64,000 nt of DNA, taken from the IMG/VR virus record IMGVR_UViG_2703718815_000003; one strand, given 5' to 3'. The stretch comes from a virus. Taxonomy: Duplodnaviria; Heunggongvirae; Uroviricota; Caudoviricetes. The notes beneath the pieces were generated by a model that was not told the origin of the DNA, ran no database searches, and was given only the letters and a program-made list of their open reading frames with translations. Shown here one piece after another: positions 16,208-23,381 of this stretch; position 1 is the stretch's first letter, and each line of letters opens with the position of its first letter. The position numbers and the translations under genes were made by a program.

Positions 16208-16228
16208 TTAAGTAAGTATTTACCTATC
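16208..16228. promoter_or_regulatory. class II palindromic motif
   Basis: ttaagtaagtatttacctatc. Confidence 0.45.
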
Positions 16229-17912
16229 ATTTAACGCATTTGAAAACGTATACGCTGACTGTGATCCCTGTGTCTTCAAACTCGTTGGTAAACGACTTCC
16301 CTCTGGCATAAACGTAATTATCCATCGTCATCCAGTCCAGTATTGGCGCAGTGCCCGGCAATACTGCTACAAGACGCCCGCCGACTTTCAGATGCCCCAG
16401 CGCAGCCAGCGTGTGCTCTCTATGACGACCAAGCGAGTACGGCGGGTTCATAACGATTTTGTCGAACTGATAACCTGCGTTGTCCTCAGACCACTTTATG
16501 AAGTCGCAGCAAATCGTGTTCGTATACCCTTTTCCAAGCAGGATATCAGCGAAGAGAGGTGCGATTTCTATGCAGGTAACATCTTCCAGATCGGCGTTAA
16601 TATAGGCCAGAAGATCCCCACGTCCGGCTTGAGGCTCCAGCAGCTTCTCACCAGGCTTCAATTCAGTGGCTCTGGCAACGTACTCAGCAATCAAGCGTGG
16701 GGTAGGGTAGAACTGGTGTGATTTTGTATCCGGTATTAAACCGGTAGCCACAATCGTATTTAGCGTATGGCCGATGTCATACGGGAACTGCCAGTGCTTT
16801 TTCTCCTGCACGCCGCCAATGAAGCTCAGTGTGCGCTCAAGCTCTTCCACCTGCGACTTCTGGAGAGCTGAATCAGAGAAGTACCATACGCCTTTGTCTT
16901 TGCTCAATCGCCCGTCACGAAGCGCAGTGCGAACCGGCACGGAGATCGTCTTCTGGATTAACCCGAACTGCTTTGGTGCCCGTGTTTTTGGCGCAGTTCG
17001 GCATGGCGCGGGGATTGCAGCAGGCATACTGTAAGCCAGCACCTCATTCAACTTCCAGGCCACGTCAGGATGTATTTCAAAGTGAACGTTGCCGTTCTTG
17101 AACATCTTCACGCGCATCAGATTTCCATCGACGTTCATCCAGTCACCGGTCTGGCAGTCGTTTGCTCGATACGCAGCTGATAGCACCTCAGCAGTGCGGT
17201 TGATGGTAATAAATTCTTTGTGCGCGAAGAAATGAAGCAAGACACGCAGATCGTCGATGTAGTCCTCTTTGCGATAGTTCACGCTAACGCTGTCCCGCCA
17301 GAAATCAGAAATGCAGTCAGCGATTATCAGACGCTCGCTGAAACCGTTTGTCTTATTTGTCTTGTGCGCAGGACTCAGCGCCTTAAACAAGCCATACACG
17401 CGCTCAGAGAGATATTTGTGCCTGTCATTCAGCAAATTAAGCATCGTGGGTATGACCGTTTCTGCTTTGAACTCCGGTACACCAACGAACTCTTTAACCT
17501 TCATCTGGTAGCCGGTTCTGTCAGTTTTGATGACTTCCTGTTTGCCCTCTATAAACTGCTCGCGCCACTCATCTCGACGGGAAGCTGGCATGATCAGCAA
17601 AACGTTAGTCATGTCCGTGACCTTCCTCCAGTACTCGGCCCAAATATTCTGTTTCACCCATTCCAGATCGACTTTATCCAACCAACCTCGATTTAAACGC
17701 GAGCGATCTTCATCTGGTCGATGGTTTAGTCTCAGCAGGCGATTAATCATGTTGTGGCGTTCGTCGCCATAAACGAAGTCGTGAACCTGATACATGAAGG
17801 CGATCTCTTTCTCGCACTCGGCCACAATTTCGTGGATGACGTTCATTTCCTGCCGATAGTCGATAGCAGTGTTTGAGTTGGCATCGTCGATGATGGAAAG
17901 GGCTGTATTCAT
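16227..17912 (-). CDS. N6-adenine DNA methyltransferase with large N-terminal domain
   Basis: 561 aa; C-terminal FYPTP...EPQAGRG (motif I-like) and NPPY motif IV; about 390-aa N-terminal domain of unknown function. Confidence 0.7.
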   Translation of the reverse strand: MNTALSIIDDANSNTAIDYRQEMNVIHEIVAECEKEIAFMYQVHDFVYGDERHNMINRLLRLNHRPDEDRSRLNRGWLDKVDLEWVKQNIWAEYWRKVTDMTNVLLIMPASRRDEWREQFIEGKQEVIKTDRTGYQMKVKEFVGVPEFKAETVIPTMLNLLNDRHKYLSERVYGLFKALSPAHKTNKTNGFSERLIIADCISDFWRDSVSVNYRKEDYIDDLRVLLHFFAHKEFITINRTAEVLSAAYRANDCQTGDWMNVDGNLMRVKMFKNGNVHFEIHPDVAWKLNEVLAYSMPAAIPAPCRTAPKTRAPKQFGLIQKTISVPVRTALRDGRLSKDKGVWYFSDSALQKSQVEELERTLSFIGGVQEKKHWQFPYDIGHTLNTIVATGLIPDTKSHQFYPTPRLIAEYVARATELKPGEKLLEPQAGRGDLLAYINADLEDVTCIEIAPLFADILLGKGYTNTICCDFIKWSEDNAGYQFDKIVMNPPYSLGRHREHTLAALGHLKVGGRLVAVLPGTAPILDWMTMDNYVYARGKSFTNEFEDTGITVSVYVFKCVK

Positions 17913-17952
17913 AATTGCACCATTAAGAAGTGATTTGTTTAATGGTGCAATT
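17913..17952 (-). promoter_or_regulatory. 14-bp inverted repeat abutting MTase start codon
   Basis: aattgcaccattaa-N12-ttaatggtgcaatt; 3' arm ends 1 nt before ATG and contains the only SD-like GGTG. Confidence 0.5.
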
Positions 17953-18015
17953 ATTTCAAAAATGAAAAGGTACTAAATAGAAATAAACAGGCAATCCTTC
18001 AAATAAAGGCATTGG

Positions 18016-18630
18016 CTAATCATACTTGGAGGTATTTATCACCAGAATTTTGTTTGTATAAATCTTCTTAATATCCCATGTGACATTACCGGAATACCAT
18101 TGACCGTTATATACTTGGTTTCCAGTTGCACCTGTCATTGTTACATAGACAGGTCTGTCGTAATCGGTTCGTCTATAGTTATATACTCCAACCATAGCAG
18201 GCATTACCGCACATGGATACCCCATATCTATTGTAAATTGAGGGTCAGAAATAGTGATAAGTTTCGCATCAAGGGGCATCATCTCACCGTGATACACCAT
18301 TGCGCCTGCGCTGTTATACATGGCAATGCCATAGCCAGAATGTGGTAACACCATATCAGAAAAAGCATAAACTGTTATTGTTCCGGGGCTACCATTTACC
18401 TGATGCAATCTGAGAGCATTGTATCCGTTACTATGCTCATGAATAAACATCATGTTCGCCTTATTACTGCTTTTTATGAAAAAAAAACATGATTTGTTTG
18501 ATGGGATTGATGTTTGAAAAACAGAACCTTTAGATGTAGACATTGTCCCTTTATTAATCAGATTTTGCGGAGTAAATTCTGGACTCATCCACAAACTTCC
18601 ATCTGATTGAGTAATTGACATCCCGAACAT
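18016..18630 (-). CDS. hypothetical G/Y/N/S-rich protein (204 aa)
   Basis: Track ORF (TTG at 18687) trimmed to ATG (MFGMSITQ...) with GGGGA RBS. Confidence 0.45.
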   Translation of the reverse strand: MFGMSITQSDGSLWMSPEFTPQNLINKGTMSTSKGSVFQTSIPSNKSCFFFIKSSNKANMMFIHEHSNGYNALRLHQVNGSPGTITVYAFSDMVLPHSGYGIAMYNSAGAMVYHGEMMPLDAKLITISDPQFTIDMGYPCAVMPAMVGVYNYRRTDYDRPVYVTMTGATGNQVYNGQWYSGNVTWDIKKIYTNKILVINTSKYD

Positions 18631-18632
18631 AA

Positions 18633-18914
18633 TTATCCCCAGTATGTGTATATGTAAGAACCAAGCCCCGTATATAAATTTGACCAACTAACCGTATTTC
18701 CATTAATAGTAACATTTGGAACAGGTAAATTGATGTAGTTGTCGTTGTTAAGAGGCATTAATGACCACACGGCATGTAGTGATTTACCCGGTGGCGGATT
18801 AGAGTACGTCTTAGAGCCTGATGACGCCGTAAATCGATCAAGAAAAAAAATAGGTGTAAGGAAGCCAGTAACGTTAATTCCTTTATTGTTGTAAATCCCT
18901 GTACCGTATGACAT
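18633..18914 (-). CDS. hypothetical G/Y/N-rich protein (93 aa)
   Basis: Track ORF; stop 2 nt before next start. Confidence 0.45.
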   Translation of the reverse strand: MSYGTGIYNNKGINVTGFLTPIFFLDRFTASSGSKTYSNPPPGKSLHAVWSLMPLNNDNYINLPVPNVTINGNTVSWSNLYTGLGSYIYTYWG

Positions 18915-22370: not shown

Positions 22371-22373
22371 ATC
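22361..22373. promoter_or_regulatory. class II motif (partial)
   Basis: gtacttatctatc. Confidence 0.3.
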
Positions 22374-22602
22374 ATTGTGATTGATTATTTTCTCTACCAT
22401 GTAGTTGAACATTCAAGGCAAACACCTCATTGATCAACTCACCTAAAAGCTGTTCAACAAGTTCGCGATGCTCGCCAAGATGCAAGCACTTAATTGCCCA
22501 TTCGTACAAGTTGAAAGCCTGCTCACGATCTTTCATCATTTCACGAGCCTGGGCCAGAAAATCGCTCTCTACGAGCGCAACGACATTAGTCGGGTATGAC
22601 AT
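22372..22602 (-). CDS. hypothetical protein (76 aa)
   Basis: Track ORF trimmed to ATG (MSYPTNVV...) with AAGGAAACC RBS. Confidence 0.45.
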   Translation of the reverse strand: MSYPTNVVALVESDFLAQAREMMKDREQAFNLYEWAIKCLHLGEHRELVEQLLGELINEVFALNVQLHGRENNQSQ

Positions 22603-22705
22603 GTTGGTTTCCTTAAAGTGGTTCATAAAATCGATTTTAAAGCGTCTGGGAAGGGGTTCTAGTGGATTCTGTAGTGATGTTCAGGTCTGGAGTCTCTGAT
22701 ACAAA

Positions 22706-22768
22706 ACAGCCTGCTTCCGTATATTAATAATTAATATGTAGTTATTTATATATACAGAAGCAGGCTAA
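22706..22768 (-). terminator. long-loop hairpin (10-bp GC stem enclosing AT palindrome) + U-run
   Basis: agcctgcttc...gaagcaggct; loop contains atattaat a attaatat. Confidence 0.4.
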
Positions 22769-22787
22769 TTACAGACGCCAGAACAAA

Positions 22788-23381
22788 CTAAGCAGCCTTC
22801 TTTGATGGTCTTTTTTTCCTGATCACATTCGCAGGATCATACCCTCCCAGACTTTTCATGACGTCCAAAGGGATCTTGCTTATAGAGTGCCCAGCGTCCT
22901 GACAGAATCCTCGAAAAACAACGAGCATACTGCCACCTGGGTTGATGTTTACTTCTACCTGACCCAGATTGACGTCAGGCTCGACAAACGCTACGCGGCC
23001 ACCAGACAGAATAATCGTCTCATTCGCACACTCTGTTGCACGCTCATACCACTTTGTATCTAGGGATTGAGGAATTAGCATCACTGTTGTAACTCCGCGA
23101 GCCTGCTCACGTATAGCCGCATCAATCCAGGGGGAGATTTTGGAGTAGGGTGGATTGAGGAAGGCAATTGTACCTGGCTGTCCCCATTCAGATTTCAAAG
23201 CATCACGCTCAACGCCTATGAAATTAGGCAGCTTTGCATTGTCCTTGTTGCAGGCAACGTCAACATCAAATGTCACTCCAAGATAACGTTGAATGGCAGA
23301 AAACAGCCAGTCAGGTGTTCTCCAGAGGTCACGAAGAGAGTTGTCGCGCTTTCGCTGTTTGATTTTTTCGGCTGCAATCAT
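22788..23381 (-). CDS. phage-type DNA N6-adenine methyltransferase (Dam-like)
   Basis: 197 aa; WRTPDWLF...FLNPPYS (NPPY motif). Confidence 0.75.
   Translation of the reverse strand: MIAAEKIKQRKRDNSLRDLWRTPDWLFSAIQRYLGVTFDVDVACNKDNAKLPNFIGVERDALKSEWGQPGTIAFLNPPYSKISPWIDAAIREQARGVTTVMLIPQSLDTKWYERATECANETIILSGGRVAFVEPDVNLGQVEVNINPGGSMLVVFRGFCQDAGHSISKIPLDVMKSLGGYDPANVIRKKRPSKKAA

Follow-up and report, generated by a model that had tools for sequence, protein, structure and literature searches.

The window analysed here is a 64,000-nucleotide (nt; 64-kb) stretch of viral DNA (Caudoviricetes; IMG/VR record IMGVR_UViG_2703718815_000003) that carries on its minus strand two genes for N6-adenine methyltransferases, denoted gene A and gene B, and, directly before the start codon of gene A, a perfect palindrome that joins a predicted promoter to the ribosome-binding site (RBS). 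On sequence identity the window is an SSU5-like phage-plasmid of E. coli, because the 7.6-kb region around both genes is 99.6% identical over its full length to the 107-kb non-mobilizable E. coli plasmid NZ_CP062854.1 and 95.6-99.3% identical to the Escherichia phages CMS-2020a, Cyrano and PhiR41_1. Salmonella phage SSU5 is 83% identical to part of the region, which matches 698 plasmid records in all (Klebsiella, Escherichia, Enterobacter, Salmonella and others). According to the annotation of the close relative, genes A and B belong to a long minus-strand arm that also encodes nrdAB, thyA, DHFR, RNase H, a 3'-5' exonuclease, dnaE, ligase, primase and a DnaB-like helicase; the other 43 kb of the 107-kb relative encode virion proteins and ParB-like proteins. 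Both genes are present throughout the SSU5-like elements of many enterobacterial genera. The main features are as follows.

16227-17912, minus strand: gene A, open reading frame (ORF) of 561 residues, DUF4942 plus gamma-class N6-adenine methyltransferase; stop codon at 16227-16229
16230-16727, minus strand: gene A catalytic domain (residues ~396-561), with the motif X-like HQFYPTP and motifs I and IV
16728-17912, minus strand: gene A N-terminal region (residues 1-395), with the DUF4942 match at residues 140-295 (17028-17495)
17911-17926, minus (mRNA) strand: 3' arm of the palindrome, UUAAUGGUGCAAUUAU, containing the GGUG element that resembles a Shine-Dalgarno (SD) sequence and the AU of the AUG
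17939-17954, minus (mRNA) strand: 5' arm of the palindrome, AUAAUUGCACCAUUAA, overlapping the -10 hexamer and the predicted start site
22788-23381, minus strand: gene B, phage N6-adenine methyltransferase of 197 residues, NPPY at residues 76-79 (23145-23156)

The original prediction, made from the letters of the window, read both ORFs as N6-adenine methyltransferases, and the domain and motif evidence bears this out, with intact catalytic motifs in both. In gene A the order of the motifs, HQFYPTP, motif I (LEPQAGRGD, residues 425-433, 16614-16640) and motif IV (NPPY, residues 489-492, 16437-16448), is that of the gamma class, in which xEPxxGxG lies upstream of (N/D)PP(Y/F). P427, A429, G430, G432, N489, P490 and P491 are invariant among 24 gene A homologues, and a profile of these homologues has M.TaqI as its best solved relative (E 3e-4), followed by the type I HsdM subunits. 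The C-terminal domain adopts the class I Rossmann methyltransferase fold and lies near known N6-adenine enzymes. With M.TaqI-type enzymes (also HsdM, M.BseCI and CamA) gene A shares the order of motifs X, I and IV, the Rossmann fold and the catalytic NPPY. M.TaqI, however, has its target-recognition domain C-terminal to the catalytic domain, whereas gene A carries an extra ~390 residues at the N-terminus instead; as the protein ends ~70 residues past NPPY, it lacks a C-terminal target-recognition domain. A fused restriction-modification (R-M) enzyme of type IIG/IIL (MmeI, BpuSI type) was considered for gene A and rejected, there being no nuclease signature and no structural match.

The 390-residue N-terminal domain, correctly predicted to be of unknown function, proves to contain a match to Pfam DUF4942 (PF13708) at residues 140-295 (E 1.7e-20, 74 bits against a gathering threshold of 25), and it is therefore a named family of unknown function. 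Among solved structures the N-terminal ~390 residues have no neighbour. An exhaustive HMMER search with the N-terminal region alone retrieved 612 clusters (50% identity, E <= 1e-3), nearly all of them proteins of 500-580 residues with most of the query region matched, and so the two-part architecture is fixed and widespread. PHROG 6263 ('DNA methyltransferase') covers gene A over its full length (E 1.8e-298), and the database cluster of gene A at 99% identity has 1384 members. Gene A is thus a full-length member of the DUF4942/PHROG 6263 family (SSU5_095, Cyrano CYRAN_90, pHCM2 'YdiA'), 99% identical to database entries, with the two-part architecture and invariant residues of that family and with no trait that would set the protein itself apart. 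The closer relatives (~45-86% identical) have the same start codon and likewise begin with M-[NST]-T-A; in more distant homologues the start of the protein differs. Presumably the DUF4942 region supplies the target recognition or DNA binding of gene A. DUF4942 proteins have been listed in chromosomal islands, the Shigella SRL island and Salmonella SPI-3, the Shigella protein lying a few genes downstream of the YeeU/YeeV toxin-antitoxin genes (PMC6980539, PMC10893270). Our search of the literature for DUF4942 proteins found no experimental work on any member, and incidental mentions were all that we found on DUF4942, on the methylases of SSU5 and pHCM2, and on phage-plasmid methylomes. Residues 328-558 of gene A (16239-16931), a small domain plus the methylase, also match families of giant phage proteins of 1,259-3,925 residues (PHROG 9133, E 4e-49, and also 15406, 11358 and 10691); this C-terminal module is apparently one that polyvalent proteins also carry.

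The fold of the catalytic domain matches the rRNA m6A methyltransferases METTL5, KsgA and Erm as well as it matches the DNA enzymes, which speaks against taking DNA for granted, and DNA is therefore not proven as the substrate of gene A. If gene A modified RNA or protein, an anti-restriction role would be wrong for it; NPPY does occur in amino-methyltransferases that do not act on DNA (PMC3299994), and no Pfam DNA-methylase match below E 0.01 was found for gene A. We nevertheless regard this as very improbable. The best sequence-profile matches are the DNA enzymes M.TaqI and type I HsdM, the best PADLOC matches are DNA methylases (type II methyltransferases and, first, mad2, the methylase of the MADS system, whose match is confined to the catalytic domain), giant phage and plasmid proteins in which the C-terminal module turns up again are annotated as DNA methyltransferases, and the genomic neighbours of the gene are DNA methylases and replication genes. 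We infer that gene A acts on DNA.

Gene B lies 4.9 kb from gene A, in agreement with the predicted 5 kb, and is a member of PF05869/TIGR01712. It scores 131.8 bits against Pfam Dam PF05869 (E 2.5e-38, cutoff 28.1) and 113.9 bits against NCBIfam TIGR01712, 'phage N-6-adenine-methyltransferase' (curated equivalog cutoff 97.05), above both curated cutoffs, has the NPPY motif of the family and belongs to PHROG 111. It accompanies gene A in the SSU5-like elements of Escherichia, Salmonella, Klebsiella, Cronobacter, Enterobacter, Xenorhabdus and Providencia. T1 Dam, HP1 Dam and VT2-Sa Dam, all of the TIGR01712/PF05869 family, methylate GATC. The nearest members in phages outside the SSU5 group, the Dam-like genes of Stx and lambdoid phages, are ~39% identical to gene B, and for this reason GATC specificity is not to be assumed. 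The window shows no avoidance of GATC (264 observed, 319 expected), which is uninformative on the specificity of gene B. The non-specific methylases Hia5 and M.EcoGII were rejected as relatives: Hia5 is of the alpha class with DPPY and a central target-recognition domain (PMC3299994), M.EcoGII is a beta-class enzyme of 349 residues (PMC5778455), and neither falls in the family of gene A or that of gene B.

No restriction endonuclease is annotated in the whole of the 107-kb, 99.6% identical plasmid, in which many ORFs are 'hypothetical', and the neighbouring ORFs match neither a PADLOC defence system nor a Pfam nuclease; the claim that no cognate endonuclease is evident thus stands. Given their identities and catalytic motifs and the absence of an annotated endonuclease, genes A and B are orphan N6-adenine methyltransferases. 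The sole endonuclease-type annotation in the element is a LAGLIDADG homing endonuclease of 780 residues in the near-identical plasmid (L076 4413-6752, mapping approximately to ~43160-45500 of the window), which is not a restriction enzyme. Distant gene A homologues (33-37% identity) occur in the early operons of lambdoid prophages in Variovorax and in an Enterobacterales genome, where they adjoin other lone methylases (PF01555, PF00145), and a third adjoins a Dam-type gene on a 116-kb plasmid-like contig. Palindromic restriction sites of 6 bp are strongly avoided in the window (observed against expected: AAGCTT 0 and 17.8, AGCGCT 0 and 12.3, GGCGCC 0 and 10.9, GAGCTC 0 and 10.8, GCATGC 0 and 10.2, GAATTC 0 and 9.2, CTGCAG 2 and 12.5), and the element has thus clearly been shaped by restriction. 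The prophage context, the carriage of both genes throughout SSU5-like elements and the avoidance of restriction sites make an anti-restriction role plausible; most likely, the two enzymes would methylate the element's own DNA and so help it to survive restriction in the next host. A lysogen keeps its prophage methylase M.EcoGII silent, and the cell is harmed if that gene is expressed constitutively (PMC5778455), so that tight control of a methylase makes sense.

The palindrome before gene A consists of two arms of 16 nt (17911-17926 and 17939-17954) that are 100% complementary and enclose a loop of 12 nt. The predicted inverted repeat and its N12 spacer are therefore real, although the stem, given as 14 bp, is in fact a perfect 16 bp. 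It is the longest perfect short-range inverted repeat of the window, against a chance expectation of ~6e-4 for such repeats by our own estimate. The mRNA strand reads AUAAUUGCACCAUUAA-N12-UUAAUGGUGCAAUUAU followed by G, so that the first two bases of the start codon, A and U, are part of the stem. The sole SD-like element within 20 nt of the AUG is GGUG at -9 to -6, and it lies in the 3' arm, as had been foreseen. The local RNA fold has a z-score of -4.0, and none of 200 shuffles was equally stable. We rejected the palindrome as an intrinsic terminator on either strand, as the stem is not followed by a run of U and is absent from the terminator scan. Rfam gave no match at or near 17911-17954 (four chance-level matches lie elsewhere), inspection of the sequence showed no EcoKI, GATC, DnaA-box or IHF site inside the palindrome, and neither the window nor the remainder of the 107-kb relative contains the 14-nt half-site again more often than chance allows.

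The whole stem had been assumed to lie on the mRNA of the gene; this does not agree with the predicted promoter, for the 5' arm coincides with an extended -10 element and the predicted start site. The predicted promoter is one copy of a module that recurs in the window.

17950-17958, minus strand: predicted extended -10 element, TGaAATAAT (TG at 17958-17957, one base, AATAAT at 17955-17950)
17904-17981, minus strand: copy of the promoter/leader module at gene A (nhmmer profile of six copies, E 6.4e-10)
1866-1783, 2564-2484, 4003-3922, 6593-6510 and 15028-14951, minus strand: other copies of the promoter/leader module

The six copies, of ~60-80 nt, align without gaps (nhmmer E 1e-16 to 6e-10), and the register of the -10 element and start is identical in all of them. 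Their consensus is aatTTGTTTTCTaCCTTtTc-N8-TTGnGAwAAT-aACACCAAcaAGAAAACAAnnTGTTTA-SD-ATG. Transcription is predicted to start at about A17943, inside the 5' arm. Among 26 distinct upstream sequences the TG is at least 90% conserved, A2 and A5 of the hexamer are invariant and T6 is nearly so; the A at position 26, which corresponds to 17943 and lies 7 nt downstream of the hexamer, is also invariant. The module is conserved upstream of gene A across lineages, and the SSU5 homologue of gene A has a strong intrinsic terminator ~75 nt before its ATG, which calls for a promoter in exactly that interval. The module has a poor -35 region (2-3 of 6 positions), which counts against the promoter assignment; as a result the call depends on the extended -10 and its repetition. 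If A17943 is the start, all but the last five nt of the 5' arm would be missing from the gene's own mRNA, which could form no stem, and any action of the stem would be limited to read-through RNA or to the DNA. The repeated module is probably the promoter class of the element's cassette genes.

Beyond the six copies, weaker ones lie on the minus strand at 25577, 19600, 24457, 3495 and 1372. Taken as a whole the module spans ~80 nt, with a conserved TTGTTTTCTaCCTTtTc box, the extended -10 (TGnGAwAAT) and a conserved leader, ACACCAAcaAGAAAACAAnnTGTTTA. A distinct 13-bp palindrome, AAACAAnTTGTTT, has 14 copies in the window against 0.5 expected (at 1317, 1802, 2552, 3455, 3939, 5090, 6530, 6581, 15017, 19557, 20286, 30508, 41946 and 55623) and four more in the rest of the 107-kb relative (L086, at 1348, 4276, 38015 and 38040). 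Its positions, in leaders and ahead of the repeated promoters, make it a candidate operator for a phage regulator. In the window the methylase leader has lost its copy, and the SSU5 leader keeps one.

The effect of the start site on the RBS was computed. Opening the region from -12 to +6 costs 17-19 kcal/mol (18.0) in read-through RNA and 3.3 kcal/mol in RNA that begins at the predicted start. When the upstream part is shuffled the mean cost falls to 6.2 +/- 2.0 kcal/mol, and none of 150 shuffles reaches 18.0. In the computed fold the SD and AUG are hidden by the stem when the upstream arm is included, as in sequestration of the IS10 type. Promoter and RBS also pair in this way, more weakly, in two other modules, 1855 and 15019 (3 of 150 shuffles each). 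In the former (~1836-1790, minus strand) a GC-rich repeat of 7 bp, CACUGCG/CGCAGUG, links the extended -10 region with the bases next to the SD, and the read-through opening cost is 14.0 against 6.5 kcal/mol, a value reached by 3 of 150 shuffles.

To place the palindrome among its relatives we compared 32 distinct upstream sequences from 71 IMG/VR loci, SSU5, a Klebsiella phage, Enterobacter and Providencia. Only one lineage of E. coli has the 16-bp form; the stem measures 12 bp in a second E. coli lineage (L008 type) and 13 bp, with a G.U pair, in L044. The L008 type uses the standard module sequence as its 5' arm, without a difference from the copy at 1855, and it is the RBS side that is complementary to it. 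Double substitutions keep the pairing in L008 (G-C to A-U), in L072 (U-A to A-U) and several times in L044, while the C-to-U changes in L021 and in L056/L065 keep G.U pairs on the sense strand. Overall 71% of cells are paired, against 27-53% in slid registers. We regard the covariation as suggestive for the stem and not as proof of an RNA structure. The window-type upstream region, that is the palindrome with its flanks, was found in 149 of 5,426 complete E. coli genomes, on plasmids at 149 of 151 places (those listed are of 106-117 kb), and is at least 99% identical in 104 of 150 matching records.

Two 'moron' genes lie just upstream of gene A in the window (18016-18914, minus strand), one for a membrane-associated protein (PHROG 425) and one for an outer-membrane protein (PHROG 557). 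They are ~78% identical in nucleotide sequence to genes of the phages JenP1, JenP2 and BRET and are absent in SSU5; their insertion co-occurs with the 16-bp palindrome.

The most economical reading of these data is fold-back insulation of gene A in the style of IS10, although with a start site that is predicted we hold it tentatively and stop a little short of calling it probable. Gene A would have its own promoter, one copy of the repeated module with its extended -10. The 5' arm would be built from the -10 and +1 region of that promoter, and the 3' arm from the RBS and the AU of the AUG. The mRNA from this promoter, starting at about A17943, would lack the 5' arm and be translatable; RNA reading through from the upstream genes would contain both arms and form a hairpin of -20 kcal/mol that buries the SD and AUG. 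The palindrome would then block translation only of read-through transcripts. It would insulate synthesis of the methylase from outside transcription and leave control to the gene's own promoter. The precedent is fold-back inhibition in IS10 (Davis, Simons and Kleckner 1985, as cited in PMC13181058). In IS10/Tn10 an inverted repeat pairs sequence upstream of the gene's own start site with its RBS, and only externally initiated transcripts fold and are silenced; we predict the same for gene A. The differences are that the IS10/Tn10 gene is a transposase and this one a methylase in a phage-plasmid, that the 5' arm here is the -10 hexamer itself, and that the start is a prediction.

Several observations weigh against this proposal. 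The relatives in SSU5, Klebsiella and Enterobacter have a stem of only ~5-9 bp around a CACCA/UGGUG core, with a stability of ~-6 kcal/mol; the long stem is therefore a lineage-specific elaboration, and insulation, if real, would be strong only in some E. coli lineages. The covariation is modest, with double changes at only three pairs and with 6-14 of 500 shuffles reaching the observed level, and template switching can also make double changes in a DNA palindrome without selection. In Providencia the palindrome covers the extended -10 and not the SD, so that it tracks the promoter rather than the RBS. In that phage-plasmid (L079 2390-2500) an imperfect palindrome, ATGTAAA..CATCAAT-AAGAA-ATTGGTGAT..TTTACAT, ends 24 nt short of the ATG, and the SD is a separate GAGG. 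Finally, our literature search found no start-site, methylation or expression data for this element. It is the predicted start, the lineage-specific stem, the Providencia form and the possibility of template-switch correction that hold our confidence down.

Were transcription to start upstream of the palindrome, every gene A mRNA would carry the 16-bp stem, and the stem would be a constitutive translational attenuator, with very little methylase produced, or with none until the stem is opened by a protein, RNase III cleavage or temperature. The stem is indeed very stable and buries the SD and AUG, the genes of the arm are co-oriented and closely spaced, the gene upstream in the window lineage ends in only a weak terminator-like hairpin, and the -35 of the module is poor. 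We consider such an attenuator unlikely, however, since in all lineages the 5' arm holds the conserved extended -10 and the conserved A at the predicted +1, in a register common to the six module copies, the SSU5 terminator demands a promoter between itself and the ATG, and at a cost of 17-19 kcal/mol a well-conserved, intact gene would go almost wholly untranslated. A neutral origin, which we rate no higher, would do without any regulatory role. Template switching is an established means by which quasi-palindromes are corrected. An ancestral CACCA...UGGUG would have been made perfect by intramolecular template switching, which copies new mutations from one arm to the other, and the gene's own mRNA would lack the palindrome. 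In keeping with this, the ancestral SSU5-type sequence is complementary at 9 of 14 positions, only some E. coli lineages have the perfect form, a start inside the arm would leave the palindrome out of the gene's own mRNA, and the shuffle statistics are modest. It is less easily reconciled with at least 3-4 different fully paired states (the window type, L008, L072 and L044), with single-arm C-to-U changes that are all wobble-compatible on the sense strand, with the frequency and near identity of the window-type region among E. coli genomes, or with the pairing of RBS and promoter sequence in two other modules.

The palindrome might instead act in DNA, as an operator at which a dimeric regulator, or the methylase itself through its N-terminal region, blocks RNA polymerase at -10/+1, in the manner of autoregulation by some R-M methylases. 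A perfect DNA palindrome does cover the -10, the +1 and the start codon, as palindromes cover the methylase promoter in autoregulated R-M methylases and at C-protein operators; the Providencia palindrome covers the promoter and not the SD; and other control might replace the leader copy of AAACAAnTTGTTT that the window lineage has lost. Yet the half-site has no other copy in the 107-kb genome, the arm centres are 28 bp apart (~2.7 helical turns, by our reckoning awkward for a symmetric dimer) and the single-arm changes, compatible with G.U pairing on the sense strand, would break the symmetry of the DNA. These three points make an operator the less likely alternative, and we judge it improbable. 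The loop sequence also varies freely, and Pfam finds no helix-turn-helix (HTH) domain in gene A or its neighbours. C-protein systems differ further from gene A, which has no C protein, no endonuclease and no detected HTH and is preceded by a single site with unusual half-site spacing. Of these possibilities we favour fold-back insulation, and we infer that the start site lies inside the arm.

A bolder version of fold-back insulation, which we think quite unlikely, is that the promoter module is a general insulator in SSU5-like phage-plasmids and, independently, that the DUF4942 region is a new domain for target recognition or substrate selection. The untranscribed promoter-core sequence would double as an anti-RBS arm, cassette genes would be translated only from their own promoter, and gene A would be an extreme and still-evolving case. 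If DUF4942 were such a domain, a large family of orphan methylases might have unusual specificity.

None of these findings overturns current understanding. Both methylase genes are real but ordinary and are already in databases under their family names. With the promoter/RBS palindrome a known regulatory principle gains a new example, the new point being that the 5' arm overlaps the predicted promoter; we propose the palindrome as a compact case of translational insulation outside insertion sequences. It also illustrates that regulation predicted from a hairpin needs knowledge of where the transcript starts. Phage-plasmids carry resistance genes, and orphan methylases help them to cross restriction barriers, so that the targets of the methylases bear on host range. 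The family of DUF4942 methylases is large and apparently wholly uncharacterised, and a single methylome experiment would annotate thousands of genes.

Two further matches to consensus, and nothing beyond a consensus match in either case, lie upstream of gene B.

23411-23439, minus strand: promoter-like site, TTGCCA-17-AAAAAT with TG (read from 23439 to 23411)
23446-23458 and 23477-23489, minus strand: arms of a terminator-like inverted repeat

Elsewhere in the window, at ~10000-13300, the annotation of the near-identical plasmid (L075 10078-13369) places metG, encoding a full-length methionyl-tRNA synthetase, together with apbC.

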